Assembly: GCA_964016885.1 (NCBI GenBank)
Contig: OZ024743.1
Location: 202,058,001 to 202,122,000, forward strand
Reading direction: 5' to 3'
Source of the DNA: Eledone cirrhosa
Lineage: Eukaryota
Length of the DNA stretch: 64,000 nucleotides
Below, piece after piece: positions 386-49,257 of this stretch (position 1 is its first letter; every line of letters begins with the position of its first letter). The notes beneath the pieces were generated by a model that did not search any database, was not told the origin of the DNA, and saw only the letters and a list, made by a program, of their open reading frames with translations. A program made the translations under genes and the position numbers.

Positions 386-458
386 TGCCGAAACCCGGGA
401 TTAAACCAGGGACCTTTAGATCTTCAGTCTAACGCTCTCCCAACTGAGCTATTTCAGC
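386..458 (-). tRNA. tRNA-Phe(GAA), probably decayed copy/pseudogene
   Basis: Reverse complement GCTGAAATAGCTCAGTTGGGAGAGCGTTAGACTGAAGATCTAAAGGTCCCTGGTTTAATCCCGGGTTTCGGCA matches canonical metazoan tRNA-Phe except GCCG>GCTG and T-loop TTCGA>TTTAA; T-runs follow on the minus strand. Confidence 0.9.
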
Positions 459-2320: not shown

Positions 2321-2329
2321 TTATTTATT

Positions 2330-2545
2330 TATTAAAATAACAGATTAAAGTTTAAGCAAAGAATCGCTGCTTTCACCTTAACGCGATATTCAGCAGATCC
2401 CGTTAAGGGTGAAAGCAGCGATTCTTTGCTTAAACATTAATCTGTTATTTTAATAAATATTTGCTCTATGGTTCTTATATATTGATATATATTTATCATT
2501 AACGAGCCCTCTTTGGATTTCAGTCTTCAAATTTATTATTATTAA
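2330..2545. mobile_element. 'CAGA-core' HHR family insertion, head-to-head fold-back
   Basis: 2330-2383 is the inverted repeat of 2401-2452; same family at 13621, 28265, 29305, 32953 and 48604. Confidence 0.75.
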
Positions 2546-2965: not shown

Positions 2966-3816
2966 CTATTCTCAGCTAAGTCTCCAGGCAATGCGCGGAC
3001 ACCGGGGACTCATATAAAAATAATAATAATTCGGTAGATGGAACAGCTAGCGGGGGCTGAATTCCATGCACTGAAATCCTCGCTGCCTCTGGTCAAATAG
3101 CCGATTCTAAAGAATCAATCACGTGACACAGAGACTAGTCAGTAGGAATGGGATGGTAAGATGACAGACGCCTACTAACACCCCCAAACAAATTTAGAAG
3201 TGGTTTTGGCAGGTTTGCTCGACAAATCAGTGATTTGGAGATAAATATAGATAATTTAATATATCTACTAACATAAGCGCACAGATGTACGCTAATGCCA
3301 GCAAATACACAGGTTATGTCATAGTACCTAGGTGGTTCGATGCAGGAGGATGCAGAACAATAATATAAAAGACGTAAATTAAGAAAATTTTTAAAATTTT
3401 TTTTATATTATTTTTATATTATTGTTCTGCATCCTCCTGCATCGAACCACCTAGGTACTATGACATAACCTGTGTATTTGCTGGCATTAGCGTACATCTG
3501 TGCGCTTATGTTAGTAGATATATTAAATTATCTATCTTTATCTCCAAATCACTGATTTGTCGAGCAAACCTGCCAAAACCACTTCTAAATTTTTTTGGGG
3601 GTGTTAGTAGGCGTCTGTCATCTTACCATCCCATTCCTACTGACTAGCCTCTGTGTCACGCGATTGATTCTTTAGAATCGGCCATTTGACCAGAGGCAGC
3701 GAGGATTTCAGTGCATGGAAATCAGCCCCCGCTAGCTGTTCCATCTACCGAATTATTATTATTTTTATATGAGTCCCCGGTGTCCGCGCATTGCCTGGAG
3801 ACTTAGCTGAGAATAG

Positions 3817-13594: not shown

Positions 13595-13627
<33 letters not shown>

Positions 13628-13638
13628 GAGCAGATTAA

Positions 13639-13689
13639 AGTTTAAGCAAATAATCGCTGCTTTCTCTCTTAACGGAATCATCTGAAACT
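13639..13689 (-). ncRNA. Hammerhead-like motif with U4A core (CAGAUGA)
   Basis: AGUUU-CAGAUGA-UUCC(GUUAA)GAGA-GAAA-GCA..UGC-UU-AAACU. Confidence 0.6.
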
Positions 13690-13784
13690 ACCCCCCCCCC
13701 CCCACATATATATATATATATATATTTGAGGTCAAATACCATCAACACTATACACACAGAGCTGGCATATCTAAGAACTGACTA

Positions 13785-13840
13785 ACTGCCTGATGAGGTC
13801 ATAGCCATTCAATGGCTATCATCGAAATATATATAGCAGT
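13785..13840 (+). ncRNA. Type I hammerhead ribozyme
   Basis: actgc ctgatga ggtcatagcca(ttcaa)tggctatcatc gaaa tatata ta gcagt. Confidence 0.8.
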
Positions 13841-28246: not shown

Positions 28247-28264
28247 ATATATACATAGAATATC

Positions 28265-28410
28265 TCGTTAAGGGTGAAAACAGCGATTATTTGCTTAAAC
28301 TTTAATCCGTTATTTTAATAAAAATTTGCTCTACGGTTTTTATATATATTTATATATATAATCCTTATCGAGCTCTCTTGGGATGTTAGTTTTTACATTT
28401 ATTACTATTA
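28265..28410 (+). mobile_element. 'CAGA-core' family 3' fragment beginning in HHR stem II
   Basis: cgttaagggtgaaaacagcgattatttgcttaaactttaatc... matches 2401-2545. Confidence 0.7.
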
Positions 28411-29290: not shown

Positions 29291-29334
29291 ATATATATAT
29301 ATATCCACTTCTGCGTTTACAATTTGACTTTGTT

Positions 29335-29385
29335 AGTTTCAGAAGATCCCGTTAAGGGTGAAAGCAGCGATTCTTTTCTTAAACT
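29335..29385 (+). ncRNA. Hammerhead-like motif with U4A core (CAGAAGA)
   Basis: agttt cagaaga tccc(gttaa)gggt gaaa gca..ttc tt aaact. Confidence 0.6.
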
Positions 29386-29401
29386 TTAATCTGTTATTTT
29401 A

Positions 29402-29442
<41 letters not shown>

Positions 29443-29833: not shown

Positions 29834-29874
29834 CGGTGCTGATGATAGCTAACAAGCTTGAAACTAGTACATAG
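29834..29874 (+). ncRNA. Type I hammerhead ribozyme
   Basis: cggtg ctgatga tagct(aaca)agctt gaaa ctag ta catag. Confidence 0.85.
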
Positions 29875-30765: not shown

Positions 30766-32950
30766 TGGTTACACAACAGTTAGTTCACCATACCGAGAAC
30801 AATTGTTTCACCTTAGCGGATCCTCAGCTCTTAATGGACATGGTTATACGGAACAGGAAGGACAACCGTATGAACGCGCATGCGCAGAAACCGGTCACTT
30901 CACACAGGCATTACTAAAATGCGTGCGAGAGGTGTAAGGGAGATAACTGCGAAAGTCCGAACAGTTTTTAGTTGGTAAGAAAAAATATTGATGTTGTAAC
31001 AATAATTCATTGAATCTGGAGCTTTGTAGTTATTCAATAGGTGTTTCGAGACGTGTGGACAAGGTGTGAAAAATTCATATCTCGTGTTTAGGCAATCACT
31101 ATTGCATACTTTCTTTAGAATATTTATTCGTTCGTCAATACACAGTCTACACGACGGATTTCCCCTTGCGTATGGCTGGGACTTAGGGATGGCTTTCCAT
31201 TGAATGGAGTAGTCTATACTTGATTCCTTGAGGGACTATACGTGGCTCGCTAGTTTTGTGGATGAACGTCTGTCCAGGTACCTAAAGGTCGACTGATGGT
31301 TCAGGAAACGTTCCCTAAATCAGCCTCCGCCATGCCCACATAGGATTTGACATCCTGTGGTTGGTTTGGTCGGTTAGAAGTGACCACAGCTTCATAAATT
31401 ACAGCTGGTGTGTTGCATTGCTGTTGAAGGGGGAAAACGTCGGGCTTACGGCAAGAACACCCTGGTTGGGTGTTGCTCCTAGGGCTGCTGGTGATGTGGC
31501 TTTCATGTTCTTAGCGCAGGCGTATCCTAGTTTTACTTTGTGTCGGTTAAAGATGGAGCGGTATTTATGACCTACGGGAAAGTGTCTATCTAAGAGGGCT
31601 AAAAATTATTTGCCTACATTGGTTTTAACGTTGAGTTGGAAGGGAGGAGAGAACCAGATAGTTTGTCTATTGTTGCGCTTTCTTTTCTTATTGCTGTTGT
31701 TGACAGTGGGAGAGTAAGTGATAGGTTATGAGAAGCCGCTGTTAGCTAACACCGTGTTATAGTAGGGTGCCGCCCTGTCAAAGATAGTCTTATTAGAGGA
31801 GAGGTTTGAGATACTAGTGCTGATATTATTTACGAAGTTTCTAAAAGCAGTGGGAGGGTGGCATGAGTCCTTGTGAATGTAATTGAGTTTTTCGTTTAGC
31901 TTATGGAAGGGTCAGTGGATGTGGGTGCGAAGGTCTAAATTAATGTCTAAGAAATCTACGCTAGAGAGGTTGGTGGCTACTGTTATCCTAAGTCCTAACT
32001 CATTGAAGGTAGAAGCTAATTCTTTTTTAAACCGGTCGAGGTCGTGACCACTTTTATGGCTCGATAAGTTCAGTCCATTCTCGTGGTATATTCCCGTGTG
32101 GAAGTCCGGGAATCTAACAAGTAATATGTCTAAAATAAATAGGAGGCCAACCAAATCACATACGTCAGCACTGTGAAACGATCCCGTGGAGACGTCGAAG
32201 AGGTCTGAAGAGGAGGGTTTTCTCCGTCGTTGAAGAGGAGGGTTTTCCGGCAGTGAGCGATGATTTCCCTGTCTAAACCATCAACGGTGGTCTAAGTGGT
32301 AGCGAAGTCCAACACTTTGTTTAACAGGGTCTCTGAAATCGACGGGTAAAAATCGACAATGTCAAACTGTGTGAACTTTGCTTTTTGGATATTAAGGAGT
32401 TAAACCAATTAATTACGGAGTCGCTGTTCTCCAAGTGGGGCAGATTGGACTTGGTCCTAATGGTCTTAACTATGTTTCTAAGTATGGCCTTACTGACTAG
32501 TCCCATATCTGTGCGTGCCGGGTTTATTAGTCTACATGTGGGGTTAGAAGTAAAGTATACCTTGTGAACTTTCAGGGTGAGGAACGCCTCCCGCTTAGCT
32601 AGAGATTGTAGCTTCTTATCTACCTTAATGGCTTCTGTATTAATGTCGTGGTAGGCCATAGGGTTAGCTTTCTTATATTTGGAAGTAATAGCGTTATGGG
32701 CCAGGTGGCGGAAAGTGGTGTTGTCGACTTCGTAAATAATAGGTTTGTCGGAAAGAACGAAGGTGTTATTAGAAGAACTAAATTTCTTAATATCATTTCT
32801 TAGTTTAGTTTGAAAGGTGTTAGTGTGGCTGCGAAAGGAAATGTTAGCGACTAAGTCAAGAAGGTCCGCCTCGAAAGGAGCAAGTTCAGTTACCTTAGGA
32901 GGGTAGGCTCTCGATTTCAGGTTGAAGGTGTTATTCGTGCCTGTAATTTT
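30763..32950 (-). mobile_element. Naiad-type Penelope-like element, 5'-truncated and frameshifted
   Basis: AFLTLKVHK..NPTCRLINPARTDMGLVSK (32321-32659); VDFLDINLDL (31912-32154); CSCR..PLQQQC and YVGMAE GIY-YIG motifs; HHR at the 3' end. Confidence 0.88.
30795..30830 (-). ncRNA. Minimal hammerhead at Naiad 3' end
   Basis: GAG-CUGAGGA-UCC(GCUAA)GGU-GAAA-CAAUUG-UU-CUC. Confidence 0.8.
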
Positions 32951-33058
32951 GCCGTTAAAAGCGATTCTTTGCTTTTCTTTAAGCGATTCTTTAATCTGTT
33001 ATTTTAATAAATATATATATATAAAATCAAAAGATGGTTAAAAGAGTTCCATGTATTT

Positions 33059-33176: not shown

Positions 33177-33183
<7 letters not shown>

Positions 33184-35913
33184 ATATATTATTTACTGTA
33201 GTTAAACATAGCAACAGTGAACTAAATAGGGTTAAGAAAACAATTATAGAATTCTTTAAAAATTATGACCTGAAATTAGAAGTAGAAAGTAACAGTAAAG
33301 TAGTTAACTTCCTTGATCTCACCCTTAATTTAAATTCAGGACTATATTACCCCTTCCATAAACCCAATGAAAACCTAAATTATGTTAGTTTTCATTCTAA
33401 TCATCCGAAATCTGTTAAAAATGCAATAGTCAATAGTGTTCAAGAACGTCTAACTAGATTATCTGCTAACAAATCCATTTTTGATACCAAAACTGGATAT
33501 TATAATGAAGCGTTGCATAAGGCAGTATATAAAAATAATATTGAATATCTAGATAATAGTAATTCTAATTATAAACTAAATAATAATAGGAATAATATAA
33601 ATAAAGCTGACTCTAAAAATAAAAATAATTTAAATATAAATAAAAATTCTAATTTCGTGAATAAATCGGGGAAAAAAATCAGAACTAAATCAGTTATTTG
33701 GTATGCACCACCAGCATCTTTAGCTATTAAAACACCCATAGCACAATTATTTTTTAAGGCATTAGATAAATGTTTCCCTAGAACACAAATACTATTCTAT
33801 CAACAATAGACACACAGTTAAGCTATCTTACTCTACAACTATGAATATGGCTCAAAACATTGCAAAAATAAATAGCAGAATTCTTAGTTATAACCAACAG
33901 ATAATTAGTGATAATGACAATATTAATATTAACAATAATATTGATACAGAGAATAACAATAACATTACTTTAAGCACTTACAGTAGAACACCTATAAATA
34001 TTAGCAATGATAACGCGAACAGTTTAGATTATAGTAATAACAGAAAATCGAACTGTAACTGTAGAAATAGATCTGATTGCCCTTTTCAAAATAACTGCCT
34101 AAGAACTTAGTATATAAATGTACCGTTAAAGCAAATAACATTACCTACAACTAGATAGGTGCAACTTCATCGAGCTTTAAACTGAGATTTTCCAATCATA
34201 AGCATTCTTTTTCTAATCCGGATAAGAAATTTTCTACTTTTTTATCACAACTAATATGGTCTTTGAAAGAGAAAAATTTTAAATACTCAATATTTTGGTC
34301 CAAGCTTCGCACTTGTCAAGTCTACCAAAATCGCTCTATTTATCCTAACTGCAATCTTTGCAATACCGAGACTCTATAAATAATTGCTAATTATGGTAAC
34401 TTAATTAACAAAAAAAGTGAATTATTCTCAAACTGCCTGCACAAATCTGCATCTACATTTCAAGCATCATATAACATTAGGAAAAAACATTGACTAAGTG
34501 TGAAATGATTTTGATCTTATTAATAATTGCGAGTGTGAAAAGATATTGACTCTGAATAATAATTCTTGTAATGCTTTTATCATTATTGCTATTATTAATA
34601 TTGGATATAAGGTTTCTACCTAACCATAGAAACTGTTTACCTGCTCTCTTATAGAATATGTTAATCTCTAGATTGTTTAAATACACTTAGTTTTGATTTT
34701 GTATTTTTTAAACCTAGTATCTTATAAATTTGATACCTGTAATGTCTTCAGACTCGTAAACCGTTTAATAGCTTTAAATGTTTGTTTACGTCGTACGAAG
34801 ATATTGTTTACATTTATCGTATAAAAGTTTCGTTTTATTTAAATTGGTTAATAATCTGTACTTAACTTGATGTATAATTTTGAATACAGTAAAATCTAGT
34901 TAAATCAAAATTATAACACTCTTAAGTGTAATTATAACTAATAATTAATATGATATATAATTGACAAATATCGATTTAAATTTTATAGGTTATATAAGAA
35001 CTATACAAATGCTTATATCTAAATAAATCTGATTTAATAATATGACATTTACTACATTTATAAGCTTTATGGTTAGTTAATAACATTTTTAATTTTGATC
35101 TTTCTAACTAAATTATTGACTATATTTAATAATTTAAATATACTCTTATGTTAAATTATCTTTTTCACTATATATTTGTTTTAATTTCGATATAATACAA
35201 TAATATAGGTTCTTTCAAATATTATAGTCTAAAAATTTCAAGTTATTTAATTAATTGAGTATTTCTAATTAACTTAATATTTGAAAAAAAAAAAACGGTC
35301 ACGCATCATATACATTGATTCTCCTTCTCCTTTGTAATTATATGTTACCACACATATCTCCCTTTCTTTGTTTTCGTATCCTCTCTCTTTTCTTTTCTTT
35401 CTCTCCTCTAGTTAACTCTCTCGCTCTCTCTTTTACTCCTTCTATAATACGGAGGTATACATATTTTATTATTTAAATTTTTAATAGTTATGTAGTTATA
35501 TGTTAATATTTTTTACTTGCCTTTATATATACTTATTATATTTATTATTATATATATTTGATACACTTTTTTCTAAGTACCCTCTCTATTATATGTAGAT
35601 TTTCATGTTACAACTTATGGTATATAAATATTGAGTTTTGTCAAAACTAATCACTGCCAAGACTGGAATTGGACCATCAGCACAGTTGAGGTATGTCAGA
35701 CATCAATTTATTTTATCTGATGAGGATGTACTGATGAAATAGCTCAGTACCTCTGAAATATGTATAATAAAATATATTTGATCACATGAACGTCTATATT
35801 TATTAATATTTTGAAGTAATATTAATAACTCCAGAAAACAATCAGTTGAGTGCTTCTAATCTATTGTAAAATTGTATTCATTGATTAATCAATGAACCTT
35901 GTTAAACTTTTGG

Positions 35914-36315: not shown

Positions 36316-39300
36316 TTATGTTTATTGAAAGAAAGAAAGTATTAATATAAAAGGACTGTTTAGGAACAGGTTTTGAATTGACCAATAGAAAAGAGTTATA
36401 GGTCAAGTTGACTTGATCAAACACCTCAGATTTAAAGAATATAAATCCAATTTTCAAAAGGATCTCGATTCTACCCTATTGGAGCTAAAAATATATAGTA
36501 AAATCCATATCCACTCTGACAAAACTGGAAATCTATACCACATGGATATTGTTAAATTATAATGAGTTCATTTATAAAGAACTCAGGAAAAATTATAAAA
36601 AATTTAAATAATGCGGCTCTTACCAATATCAACAAAAAAACATATAACATAGTAAATAAACTCAATATTGAAGACCGAACTGAACCCTTGGCACTGAAAA
36701 AATCGCATTTTAATCTGAAGGATCACAAATCTAATTTCAACTCTAATCCTTCTATAAGACTTATATGCCCTTCCAAATTTGACATTGGCATCATTAGCAA
36801 AAAAAGAATTCTGGATACAATTATCCCACAATTATGAAAACACGTCAACTTACCACTCTGGGAAAACACATCCCAAGTAATTACTTGGTTTACTAATATT
36901 GAAAATAAATCCTCTGCTTCATTTCTACAATTCGATATAGATGCATATTATTCCTCTATATCACTCATACTCCTAAACAAAGCATTGATATTTGCCAAAA
37001 ATAGATCAGACTTAACTATGGAAGACATCAATATTATCACGCACGCTAGACAAATACTACTTGAATTTCAGAAGGAGTATTGGACCAGAAATACATATAG
37101 TAATCTCTTCGACATAACTATGGGCTATAGTGATTCTGCAGAAATTACCGATCCTGTGGTCCTTCTTCTTCTATTTAACATTAATTCATCTTTTCCCCAC
37201 CTTAAAGGTGGTTTATATCGTGATGACTGTCTTCTTCTATCCAATAATCTTAGCCTATCAGAAATTGAAATAAATAAACTTATTAGAACTTTCCTCAAAG
37301 ACTATTATAATCTCACTATTACATTTGAAAACACCAGTAAAATAGTCAATTTCCTAGATATAACTATGCATCTATCTACGGGTATCTACCAACCTTACCA
37401 TAAACCTAACCAAAACTTATATTACATACACTCACATCTATCTTTAAAAACCTAGCATATAATATCTCACTCAGAATCTCTAACCTTTCATCAAATCATG
37501 ATGTATTCGATAAAAACGCGCCCTTTTATAATGAAGCTTTAGCTAGAAGCGGCCACAAGAACAAATTAGTCTATATACCTTGCACCAATAATATTACAAA
37601 CATACAACCTAATATTACCAACAAACACCAAATGAAAAACCCACACCTAAATGCCACTCATACTACAGCTTACAACATCAACATAAAACTTAATTTCTCT
37701 ACCTCTTCTCACATAAAAGATAATGACTTTCAAAAACTATTCACCCTAATACTCTAACATATGTCAACAACAAAACTAACAAAATTCCTAGTAATCACAC
37801 CAAAACATCTAAATCAATTAATCTAACTAAACCTATATATAATAGAATCACTAATAGTAACTCTCTCAGTAAACTCCCGATACATCATATAAATATAAGA
37901 AACAATGTCGAAACCGTAATAGACGAGTTACTTGGTATAATGCTCCATTTAATCTACAGATTAAAGACCATATCCCTAAAAAATTCTTTGCTATCCTAAA
38001 GAAAAACTTCCCACCAAACTATAAATACCATCACATTTTAAATGGATCTACTGTCAAATTTTCCTACTCCACTACCAAGAATATACAACAGAATATAAGT
38101 GCTTACAACACATATAAGTGTAAAAGAAACCATTAATATACCACAAACACATCAAACCAATCATAATAATACTAAAATAAACTAAAACAAACCACCTTCT
38201 GCTTCACCTATAATAGGTCCCATAAACGCCACACCAATTTTGATTAATGATCTCTAAAACAAACAGATCTCTACTAGCTCCACATCGCCTAAACTATCAC
38301 CCACCAACAACCTGTCTAACCATGCTAATCTAATTACAACCCATTCTAAACCATACATTAATGAAAATAGTAACACTAATACCACTATAGATAACACCAT
38401 TAACTCTCCTGATACAATATTTACGAATGGTTGTAACTGTAGAATCAAAATAAATTGCCCATTAAAGGGAAATTGTCTTATTAATAACATAATCTATAAA
38501 TGTGTAATTAGTACTAAGGACTCCACTCAATCCTATATAGGAGCTACGTCTAACCAATTTAAAGTAAGATTTAATACCCACAAACATAGTTTTAAAAATG
38601 CCGCATTAGCTAATACAATCTCCTTGGCTGAAGCAATTAATAATTATAGAAATAGGGATATTGATTACAACTTGACCTGGTGCGTGCCCAAAAGGGCCAC
38701 CCCTTATCAAAATAGGAGATATGAGTGTAGGTTATGCTCCCAAGAACCTTTTGAAATCATGAAATCTAATGATATCCTATTAAATAAGCGACATGACTTA
38801 ATTATATCATGCGATCATAGAATTAGAAAAAACCTTCAAATATTATAAACTTAATTAGTATATACATCACTCTTATATTTTACAAATCATTATGATTAAT
38901 TTTAAAGGTTTTTTTTATTTAGTTACCCTATAATTAGAAATCTACTACAGAGAATTTCATAATTTTATTTCCCCCTTACAATTCACTTTACCTAAAGTTA
39001 GCTTTAACCTCACTACTTCTTTTAACCGCATCCCCTATTTATCACATTTAATACCTAGGTTTATTAAAAATAATTAATATCTTTAATATTATGGATGTTT
39101 ACATAGATACACTACTTTTTATAAAATTTTATCTATTTCAGTTTTTCTATATATATTTTTATTTTTTTTATTTTTTACTTCTTTATTTATCACATTCATA
39201 AGAATTAATATAGTTTTAACTCTGTAAGTATACCTATCAATTAATTTAATTTCCTTTTATGTATCTAGGTTCCTTTAAATTTAAATAAGATTAGTATTTC

Positions 39301-40074: not shown

Positions 40075-40113
40075 ATTGGACTAGTTTCGATGTTATTACA
40101 TCTCATCAGCAAT
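40075..40113 (-). ncRNA. Type I hammerhead ribozyme (GUC site)
   Basis: AUUG-CUGAUGA-GAUGU(AAUA)ACAUC-GAAA-CUAG-UC-CAAU. Confidence 0.9.
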
Positions 40114-46868: not shown

Positions 46869-48595
46869 TTTGCTCTTAATCAGTGAACAAGAACAACAAA
46901 TCCTGCAGCTACCAGCAAAATTTGCCATCTACAAAAAGATTAACCCTATTGAGTGCAAAACGGAGTTGGAAAAGTGTTTCACAAAAATACGTTGGAATGC
47001 AAAAGTAAACAACAACAACAACTATACGGACAACTACAACAATAATAACGGTAGTAATAATATAAACAATAACTCTGAGTATAGAAATAACAACCATAAC
47101 AATAACAATAGCAGGAGAGTGAGAAATAGTAATAGTGGTAATAATACTAACGATAGACAGAACAACAACAACAACCACAATAAGCAACGACCACAGTAGT
47201 AATAACGGTAACAATACGAACAACAACAACAACAACCACAGTGGTAATAATGGAAATAATACATGTAGCAACATTAATGATAGAAACAACAAAAACAAGA
47301 AACATAATAAAAGTAACAACCACAATGGTAGAAATAACAGTAACAACAACAATAACGGTGAAGTAAATAACAATCACAGCAACAATACATCTAGCAATCA
47401 TAACAACAATACATCTAACAATCACATCAACAATACATCTAGCAATCATAACAACAATACATCTAACAATCACAGCAACAATACACCTAGCAATCATAAC
47501 AACAATACATCTAACAATCACAGCAACAATACATCTAGCAATCATAACAATAATAATAATGCTAATGATAGGAACAACAACAACCACCATAATAACAATA
47601 ATAGCAACACACACAACTATGACGATAGATATAATGTCAACCACTTAGAGAATCTATTTTTCAACCCAGCTGACAAAATATATAAGATGGGTAATATCTA
47701 TCCTACGAGGTTACCCTTTAATAAAAGAGTTTGTATACCACAACAAATAGATGACGAGACAGAGGCACAGTTCACAATAGCTAGAAATAACATTAGACAA
47801 ATAGTAGACCGGTATACTAAGAGACAGAGCAGACCAGAGGCCCAACAACTTGGGAGGAAACCTGTAGAAGGCTTGGTTAGCCTCAAGCAGCGCACAAGGG
47901 ATGGTGAGGTAGTATGTCTACCCACGGATAAGTCTGGTAGGATGTCAATATATATCATGCCGAACTAGATCAAGGCTATGCAACCCCACATCACCAACAC
48001 GAGCGAAATTGCACAGCAAAAACATGATGGGAGAGAGAACATCCTCAACGCTCACATGATGATGTGGACCGACATCCTAAAGCCAAGCAGACGAACTGCC
48101 AACAACTTCCAGGCGTCTAACAATGGCATACCACCCTTGTATGGGCTCCGCAAAGACCACAAGCCAGTCGACGACCCGACAACAGGACCACCAACAAGAC
48201 CCGTATGCGGAGCTAATATAGCTAGCAACTACAGGATCTCCTACTTCCTCTCAATGGTTATACGCCCCATAATGAAGATGTCCCCAGGTGTATGTGACAG
48301 TACAGAGGGCCTCCTCAGCAGAATCAGTGAGTGCAACAAAAACAGGAACCTATCCAACTGCATAATAGGCAGCATGGATGTGGTATCACTGTACCCATCC
48401 ATTAACATTGATTTTGCTGTGGAAAAATGTGTGGATATGATTATTGAGAGTGAGGTAGAATTCTGCGACGTCGACACAGACGAACTGGGCCTCCTACTTA
48501 GACTTACCTACGACACTGACTACCTAGACAGCCATGACCTTAGACGTTTCTGCTCCAGTAGACCCATAAGATGTAGACCCCACACCATAACCTAT
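46869..48595 (+). mobile_element. Penelope-like element N-terminal and RT 5' half (pseudogene) with Asn-rich expansion
   Basis: PAKFAIY..ELEKCFTKIRW; PTDKSGRM; PPLYGLRKDHK..TRPVCGA; SMDVVSLYPSI; interrupted near 48595. Confidence 0.88.
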
Positions 48596-48603
48596 ATATA
48601 TTC

Positions 48604-49257
48604 ATTAAAATAACAGATTAAAGTTTAAGCAAAGAATCGCTGCGTTCACCCTTAACGGATCTTCTGAAACTAAAAAAATCAATCTGTGAGTGAGCGCAGA
48701 AGTAAATATTTCGAAAAACGTTGCAACCGAAGGAAGACAGGAAGACGATACTTTGGTTCGTGGAAACGTTCCCTGGCAAAGAACGAAAAAAAAAGAAGAT
48801 AATACGTCATTATTCGGAGCGGTGAAAACAATTACACGCAAAGACAAAACCACGTTTGTGGTATAAATGAAGTCGTAGACTAATATTCTATTAGGTGGTT
48901 CGTGGAGACGTTCTCTGGCAATGAACGGAAAAAATGAAGATAATACGTCATTATGTGGTGCGTTGAGAACAATTACACGCAAAGACAAAACCACGTTTAT
49001 GGCATAACTGGAGTCGTAGACTAAAATTCTATTTAGGAAACCGAATGATTCTCGGCTTCAGAGTTAAGAATAATGTAAATAAATTACAGAGGTTATTGAA
49101 ATCAACAAGAATATAAATATATACATACACGCATCCATATACGTACATACACATGCATACGCAAAAACAGCCGCCATGGGTACTTAAATACGGTTCTTAT
49201 ATATTTGATATATATTTACCTCTCTTTGGGTTTTAGTCTTCAAATTTATTATTACTA
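48604..49257. mobile_element. Longest 'CAGA-core' family copy (minus) with short plus-strand 3' arm
   Basis: HHR-like motif at 48622-48671; internal ~140-nt duplication (about 48755-49033); 49189-49257 matches 2467-2545. Confidence 0.7.
48622..48671 (-). ncRNA. Hammerhead-like motif with U4A core (CAGAAGA)
   Basis: AGUUU-CAGAAGA-UCC(GUUAA)GGGU-GAAC-GCA..UGC-UU-AAACU. Confidence 0.55.

Follow-up and report, generated by a model that had tools for sequence, protein, structure and literature searches.

A Penelope-like element (PLE) in the Eledone cirrhosa genome carries in its pseudo-LTRs a type I hammerhead motif that is fixed for A at position 4 of the core (A4), the position of U in the CUGA turn. 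On the comparisons of genomic copies given below, we tentatively favour the reading that it is an attenuated ribozyme, which would spare the capped RNA or template of the element and whose fold would still be selected. Attenuation fits these comparisons better than a naturally active ribozyme does.

Motif copies in the window

The window (the whole 64-kb stretch of DNA analysed) holds seven fragments of this U4A family, four of them core-bearing. As a first-pass annotation had claimed, A4 is present in every window copy that retains the 5' core: CAGAAGA at 29340 (+) and 48666 (-), CAGATGA at 13684 (-) and CAGCAGA at 2391 (+). The copy at 2391 falls outside the CAGANGA pattern to which it had been assigned because its change is A6C. 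The family is multicopy as described, but the six copies reported are seven fragments with only four cores, and its rank as the most frequent hammerhead family is about a tie with the canonical CTGAYGA-TAGCTAA family, which has five core-bearing window copies. None of the four core-bearing copies is intact (0/4). The 29340 copy carries G16.3>T at 29377 and its stem I extension is damaged, the 48666 copy has A15.1C and a deletion in stem II, stem II is altered in the 13684 copy, and the 2391 copy, one arm of an inverted junction, is without the 5' strand of stem I. The features are as follows.

29305..29408 (+), 5'-truncated solo pseudo-LTR copy (3' end), subfamily A type, between (TA)n runs
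29319..29327 (+), 5' strand of the 9-bp stem I extension, partner 29386-29394, with two mismatches in the 29340 copy
29333..29339 (+), Initiator-like TTAGTT with the putative transcription start at A 29335, where stem I begins; site of the insertion 5'-end pile-up with preceding G
29335-29339 (+), 5' strand of stem I
29340..29346 (+), 5' strand of the hammerhead core, C3 A4 G5 A6 A7 G8 A9, with A4 at 29341
29347..29359 (+), U10.1, stem II CCC/GGG with loop GTTAA (29348-29358), U11.1
29360..29380 (+), G12 A13 A14 (GAAA 29360-29363), then stem III with 9-nt loop, to 29379 and broken at 29377, and U17 at 29380
29380/29381 (+), cleavage site between these positions, predicted solely from homology
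29381..29394 (+), 3' strands of stem I and of the stem I extension
48593..49166 (-), longer 3' UTR copy, subfamily B type, core 48666-48660 with A15.1C
13616..13690 (-), older short copy with 5' end at the putative start site, core CAGATGA at 13684
2326..2545 (right end approximate), inverted pair: minus arm 2326-2391, plus arm from 2389 with CAGCAGA core and tail
28257..28410 (right end approximate) (+), decayed copy with tail, core lost
32956..33013 (left end approximate) (+), rearranged 3' fragment

Fold architecture

As in type I hammerheads, three helices surround C3 N4 G5 A6 N7 G8 A9, G12 A13 A14, the A15.1-U16.1 pair and H17; the departure is at U4 of the CUGA turn, which is A in 20,081 genomic copies and T in 94. 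Stem II consists of 3 bp (CCC/GGG) with U10.1.U11.1 as its closure, positions 15.2 and 16.2 form a G-C pair and the triplet is CUU, stem I has five AU-rich base pairs prolonged by a further 9-bp helix, and stem III is a true hairpin with a 9-nt loop. To call the motif textbook apart from position 4, as had been done, was therefore an overstatement, and the extra 9-bp helix had been overlooked. All helices are invariant over the three subfamilies described below and no compensatory change was seen.

In a minimal subfamily A fragment the hammerhead form has a free energy of -12.8 kcal/mol vs -15.6 for the minimum free energy (MFE) structure, a difference of 2.8. With 50 nt of upstream sequence it lies 3.5-9 kcal/mol above the MFE. 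Stem I is weakly populated in folding (pairing probability <0.1). These energies count against the attenuated reading.

Fixation of A4 in the genome

An exact 29-mer search of the 3.0-Gb genome returned 20,081 matches with A4 and 94 (0.47%) with T4, and the reversed-pattern control gave 0. Since 94 is close to the numbers for two control single changes in the same genome (A6T 67, A15.1C 86), T4 stands at about the level of post-insertion mutation. We also drew a motif-independent sample of 664 kb, made up of the window, 200 kb beside it and 40 spaced 10-kb stretches of the four largest contigs. It contained 42 matches, of which about 30, counted by eye, have an A4 core and none a sense T4 core. 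The genome-wide base at position 4, proposed earlier as a check, is thus A, and a U4 consensus is refuted. The same counts, together with the presence of A4 in three subfamilies and in 16/16 near-full elements, bear out the suggestion that the change arose in the master element and not by later decay.

A U4 subfamily was considered and rejected: the 94 T4 copies are near the control of 67 (binomial p 0.04), and arms of single insertions account for some of them. A GAAC subfamily was likewise dropped, its 86 copies being background and its earlier apparent frequency stemming from the query. CTGAAGA at some junctions is the reverse complement of the other arm. Searching with a pattern that allowed either U4 or A4 in the core and had locus L134's variant loop II gave 0 matches. 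In one insertion (L057, G000:C9:23473500-23481000) all three pseudo-LTR copies are T4, so that at least one event must have involved a U4 template or conversion between the arms.

That standard descriptors miss the motif, as had been predicted, is supported twice: hammerheads were absent among the best 150 of 190 matches of an Rfam scan, and the core descriptor quoted in PMC8557442 demands cuganga.

The host element

Many copies form inverted pairs, and we examined 20 stretches around such pairs and around clusters, finding a frame with reverse transcriptase (RT) and GIY-YIG between the arms. A protein search with this ORF gave 150 scored matches at 95-100% identity, of which the 16 with the longest open frames (698-747 aa open) were taken as near-full ORFs; in 16/16 of these CAGAAGA lies 914-1128 nt past the stop codon. 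Ten frames of 713 codons share 97.5-98.9% identity. The single ORF encodes 709 aa from its ATG, with RT plus a C-terminal GIY-YIG (YRDD at 346, VY..YIG at 584), and carries RWR at 37, DKT at 115, CNCRNRADC at 564, CDLC at 662, LNKKSE at 680 and CKH at 690. The unit is about 3.26 kb long with a 3' UTR of about 1 kb, targets (TA)n, and has pseudo-LTRs in direct and inverted arrangement and, optionally, a tail of about 85 nt; a direct upstream repeat is present in at least 7/16 near-full elements and an inverted arm in 6/16.

Craig et al. (PMC8557442) give as Hydra-clade criteria RWK, DKT, no GxKF, a CxCx5C linker, and CxxC and CxH around conserved N and E. The element protein, which has no GxKF, agrees with them, and it matches visibly the Hydra proteins of the published supplement. 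These motifs and the element architecture identify the host as a young autonomous PLE of the Hydra clade. A separate search found 476 protein relatives; the best is 56% identical, followed by 38-50% among the best 120 listed, nearly all unnamed. A Pfam scan of a 501-aa piece of the protein returned no family. Measured against a canonical pseudo-LTR hammerhead, position and helices are as expected and the core is A4. The motif is the Hydra-clade hammerhead in its normal location, altered at a single core position and with a G15.2-C16.2 pair that is unusual.

Four other hosts were rejected. A non-LTR retrozyme would consist of short non-coding tandem units each with a hammerhead, and the unit here measures about 3.26 kb and contains an intact ORF. 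The inverted pairs represent inverted arms of the PLE and not the terminal repeats of a MITE or DNA transposon. The Naiad clade does not fit an element whose endonuclease is C-terminal. As for a Helitron origin, the ends of some motif-carrying elements are what we take to be Helitron-like, and the copies inside such elements are passengers. A pseudo-LTR piece with the U4A motif sits inside a Helitron-like element in L005, L013, L023, L024 and L027 (near 1500), so part of the copy number comes from passenger spread. One composite repeat recurs in six further loci (L385, L393, L394, L403, L404 and L406, near 1500), where sequence of unrelated origin joins the core at A4-G5.

Origin of A4 and conservation of the fold

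A relaxed hammerhead scan of the fetched loci found many other families, nearly all with CTGA. Every CAGA hit that it printed belongs to the U4A family; hits with the usual loop II had been filtered out as family. The nearest sister family (51% protein identity) has a hammerhead TTGAGAA, covariant at U3-A8, that keeps U4. It has 2,090 exact matches genome-wide, with T4 in 100/100 of the best 100 listed. The hammerheads of this sister Hydra-type family at L154:3756-5050 and L118:1100-2450 (+) have a long stem II and a hairpin stem III. A remoter relative in the window (frames 32220-31053 on the minus strand, ~40%) has a canonical CTGAGGA with a similar U.U-closed stem II at 30827. This region, 30790-32220 (-), a decayed Hydra-type ORF followed by a canonical hammerhead, amounts to a natural control. 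A4 is derived, because the sister family, the window relative and 26/26 published Hydra rows keep U4.

The copies form subfamilies A (n=60, 3.2% from consensus), B (n=49), an intermediate group (n=18) and an older subfamily C (n=28, 9.0%). A4 is common to the three successive subfamilies; the only exceptions are six T4 copies, which come from loci picked for T4. Between the consensus sequences of A and C, the youngest and the oldest, 0/55 stem and core positions changed, compared with 7/21 in loops and 27/124 in flanks (p 9e-6). B and C differ by 0 stem or core, 5 loop and 24 flank changes. When only positions outside the pattern used to find C are counted, the A-C comparison is 0/35 vs 27/124 in flanks (p 7.5e-4). 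The unchanged A-C set spans strands upstream of the start site and 40-60 nt downstream, as the fold predicts. This conservation is invariance only, with no compensatory pair, in copies found by similarity to the same region and with a heterogeneous subfamily C.

A neutral relic, in which U4A killed the ribozyme in one master lineage and spread along with it, leaving the fold now unselected, would explain fixation by single-master descent and would agree with the lack of covariation and with ascertainment on the same region. We consider it very unlikely in view of the 0/55 changes (0/35 unascertained) against 22% in flanks and 33% in loops.

At 29338-29344 of the window the core lies in a quasi-palindrome, TTC-A-GAA, whose reverse complement is TTC-T-GAA, a point on which inverted junctions are often centred. 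U4A could arise at this quasi-palindrome in one step, by micro-inversion or template switch.

The putative transcript start

Counting junctions where the element begins with the first A of stem I and three non-T letters precede it gives 805. Applied 16 nt upstream, this test finds 29, an undercount since the control pattern spans a variable loop. Copies starting 5-7 nt before C3 number 4/19 in the unbiased set and 5/36 in the incidental set, against 0 and 3 at the next 23 positions. A G directly precedes the stem I start in 458/805 junctions (57%) vs 5/29 in the control (p 3e-5). Reverse-transcribed caps are marked by an extra G; microhomology with inverted arms may account for part of the excess. 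The start site is TTAGTT in subfamilies A and B, and TCAGTT in subfamily C, and we take TYAGTT at the stem I start to be an Initiator-like word. The first ATG past this start, at +203, is the start of the ORF. From the junction pile-up, the preceding G, the Initiator-like word and the position of the first ATG we infer a start at stem I; taken together they suggest a capped transcript that begins 46 nt before the cleavage site. An internal promoter has been described for the Penelope of D. virilis (PMC2377424). The core and stem II would occupy +6 to +29 from this start, and the core would also lie within the core promoter of the element, a point absent from the earlier reading. An RNA starting at stem I would be without the 5' strand of the 9-bp extension, which is present only in read-through and 3' copies. 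More generally, a cap-like 5'-end signature allows PLE start sites to be mapped with nothing but genomic copies.

C3-A4-G5 could also belong to a pseudo-LTR intron as the CAG of its 3' splice acceptor, with splicing holding A4. A TTGAY resembling a branch point and a tract rich in T come before TTTCAG, the 3' UTR contains strong donors upstream, and the D. virilis Penelope intron ends at helix I (PMC4209133). We give this the least credence of all readings: an RNA beginning 8 nt before the core AG would be unable to use that AG, and the upstream sense donor continuation is present in 0/30 copies joined after the core AG and 0/30 joined after an AG six nt upstream, that is, spliced genomic forms in 0/60 junction copies, a weak test because PLEs usually retain introns.

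Is the site cut?

If cleavage made the 5' ends, junctions should pile up at position 1.1. Junction patterns with a two-letter exclusion gave 118 at the cleavage site, 76 four nt upstream and 330 seven nt downstream; 27, 15 and 30 of 30 loci checked at each were true junctions, which corrects the numbers to about 106, 38 and 330. Around the cleavage site these numbers are governed by microhomology. A unique 5'-junction peak at the site is absent genome-wide, about 1% or less of copies begin there, and nearly all copies read through it. With no such peak, the genome shows no trace of cleaved templates. We rejected as a cleavage mark the 64 vs 4 excess of fold-back junctions in stem I over those in its extension: stem III gives 33, and the long arm ends at the putative start. 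The absent peak cannot tell a weak core from a dead one, because in the RNA reads described in PMC11167929 a canonical PLE hammerhead likewise has no ends at its site.

Expectations for an A4 core come from other hammerheads. U4 contacts the A6-N7 phosphate, and a viroid's U4C variant, though strongly weakened, remains viable (PMC3088659). One-base changes in the CUGA turn leave low activity, and in the mutagenesis of PMC9901934 no second change rescues them except a C3-G8 swap. A PLE hammerhead cleaves only with the protein of its element, and cleavage is unneeded for insertion in vitro (PMC11167929).

A fully active natural variant, with A4 rescued by contacts between loop II and the internal loop of stem I or by the element protein, appears improbable. 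All other core bases are strictly retained, the extended stem I has a bulge and is open to loop contacts, distal contacts can keep natural core variants active (PMC3088659), and the sister family has a compensated U3-A8 core. Against full activity, the site is read through, loop II and the internal loop differ among subfamilies, an RNA started at stem I would have no extension, and the pairwise mutagenesis just cited rescued no CUGA mutant other than the C3-G8 swap.

A close rival of attenuation, and a distinctly possible one, is a catalytically dead core whose sequence is kept as a downstream core promoter and as a folded leader recognised by the element protein, with A4 tolerated or favoured. 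Core and stem II fall at +6 to +29, and promoter function alone could hold positions +1 to about +35. The genomic junctions bear no trace of cleavage, three sub-optimal features coincide, cleavage is dispensable for insertion in vitro as cited above, and Naiads spread with no canonical hammerheads (PMC8557442). In each of the three subfamilies, moreover, an upstream (N)UUCUG strand is able to base-pair with the A4 core (shuffle p 0.02-0.04, a post hoc test that is not independent); its pairing with the 3' core was no better than in shuffles. On the other side, G5, A6, G8, A9, G12-A14, A15.1-U16.1, U17 and the four helices are unchanged as each loop changed, and U17 and the 3' strands lie beyond the usual core promoter. 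The consensus of the downstream promoter element DPE is RGWYV, and it is absent at +28 to +32.

Under attenuation, the element would work as follows. An internal Initiator-type promoter would launch a capped RNA from the first A in stem I, and the first AUG, 203 nt on, would open the ORF. A fully active hammerhead would cut this RNA 46 nt from the cap and strip the cap off; U4A, the CUU triplet, the U.U closure and the 5-bp AU-rich stem I would together slow cleavage. The RT-endonuclease would start reverse transcription at two sites downstream of the fold and copy through the uncut site into (TA)n targets, often up to the cap. Selection on the fold would probably come from low, possibly protein-assisted cleavage or from a useful step as a folded RNP. 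The first-pass annotation had offered a ribozyme tuned to leave multimers uncleaved. The sparing survives in this scheme, more likely of a capped 5' leader or RT template; the multimers do not, the host being a protein-coding PLE and not a multimeric retrozyme.

Relation to known hammerheads

Hammerheads in PLE pseudo-LTRs (PMC4209133) and natural hammerhead core variants (PMC3088659) are already known. With the Hydra-clade elements of Craig et al. 2021 (PMC8557442) the U4A element shares a C-terminal GIY-YIG, the DKT, RWK-like, CxCx5C, CxxC and CxH motifs, (TA)n targets and a sense-strand pseudo-LTR hammerhead. U10.1.U11.1 occurs in 14/26 and U17 in 10/26 of the published Hydra rows (PMC8557442 File S2), as in the U4A family. 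All 26/26 rows have ctga and C15.2-G16.2, whereas the U4A family has caga and G15.2-C16.2, and it differs from the listed rows also in its 9-nt loop III, 9-bp stem I extension and 3' UTR of about 1 kb. It is distinct from Hydra-1_Obim: the hammerhead differs, and CAGAAGATCC is absent from the supplement text.

The Poseidon element PAc (Frangieh et al. 2024, PMC11167929) likewise has a hammerhead near the 5' end of an ORF-bearing RNA, two RT start sites that yield an optional tail, and uncut RNA as template. It differs in its canonical core, its measured protein-assisted cleavage and its PLE clade. The natural variants of Perreault et al. 2011 (PMC3088659), U4C in a viroid, A6C, U3-A8 and U15.1-A16.1, are also single departures in a complete fold, but they are rare isolates, while U4A is the fixed state of a family of >20,000 copies; U4A is absent from the main text of that paper. 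The minimal dimeric PLE hammerheads (Cervera and de la Pena 2014, PMC4209133) share the pseudo-LTR location and an expected low activity, and have a palindromic stem III stub where the U4A family has a real hairpin and a changed core. A literature search that covered few subscription papers found no natural U4A hammerhead or CAGANGA core, nor did U4A appear in passages of PMC11014351, PMC3376415, PMC6765202 and PMC3846280 or in the portions consulted of bioRxiv 10.64898/2026.07.22.740005.

In PLEs cleavage seems dispensable in vitro, yet the motif is near-universal. The U4A family is a natural experiment on why hammerheads are kept: a CUGA-turn change expected to be crippling was fixed in a lineage that went on amplifying, with the other core bases and the helices kept. 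If the A4 form cleaves, the hammerhead consensus and search descriptors need widening.

Other elements in the window

Decayed PLE ORF fragments at 33183-34460 (+), 36407-38878 (+) and 32375-32926 (-) are 31-54% identical to the family protein. The near-perfect hairpin at 3299-3484, with arms of about 50 bp, is likely an inverted repeat-element junction; its matches to miRNA families are below threshold. A tRNA match at 386-458 (-) scores 64 bits, above the Rfam gathering score. Canonical minimal hammerheads occur at 35717 (+), 33116 (-), 17973 (-), 18115 (+) and 42927 (-), as an inverted pair at 40109 (-) and 40823 (+), and at 13790 (+). Five further ones, at 29839 (+), 30355 (+), 13468 (-), 13046 (-) and 12621 (-), have a U.U closure and a palindromic ACTAGT stem III. 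This ACTAGT family lies in tandem units of about 420-520 nt, a retrozyme-like arrangement.
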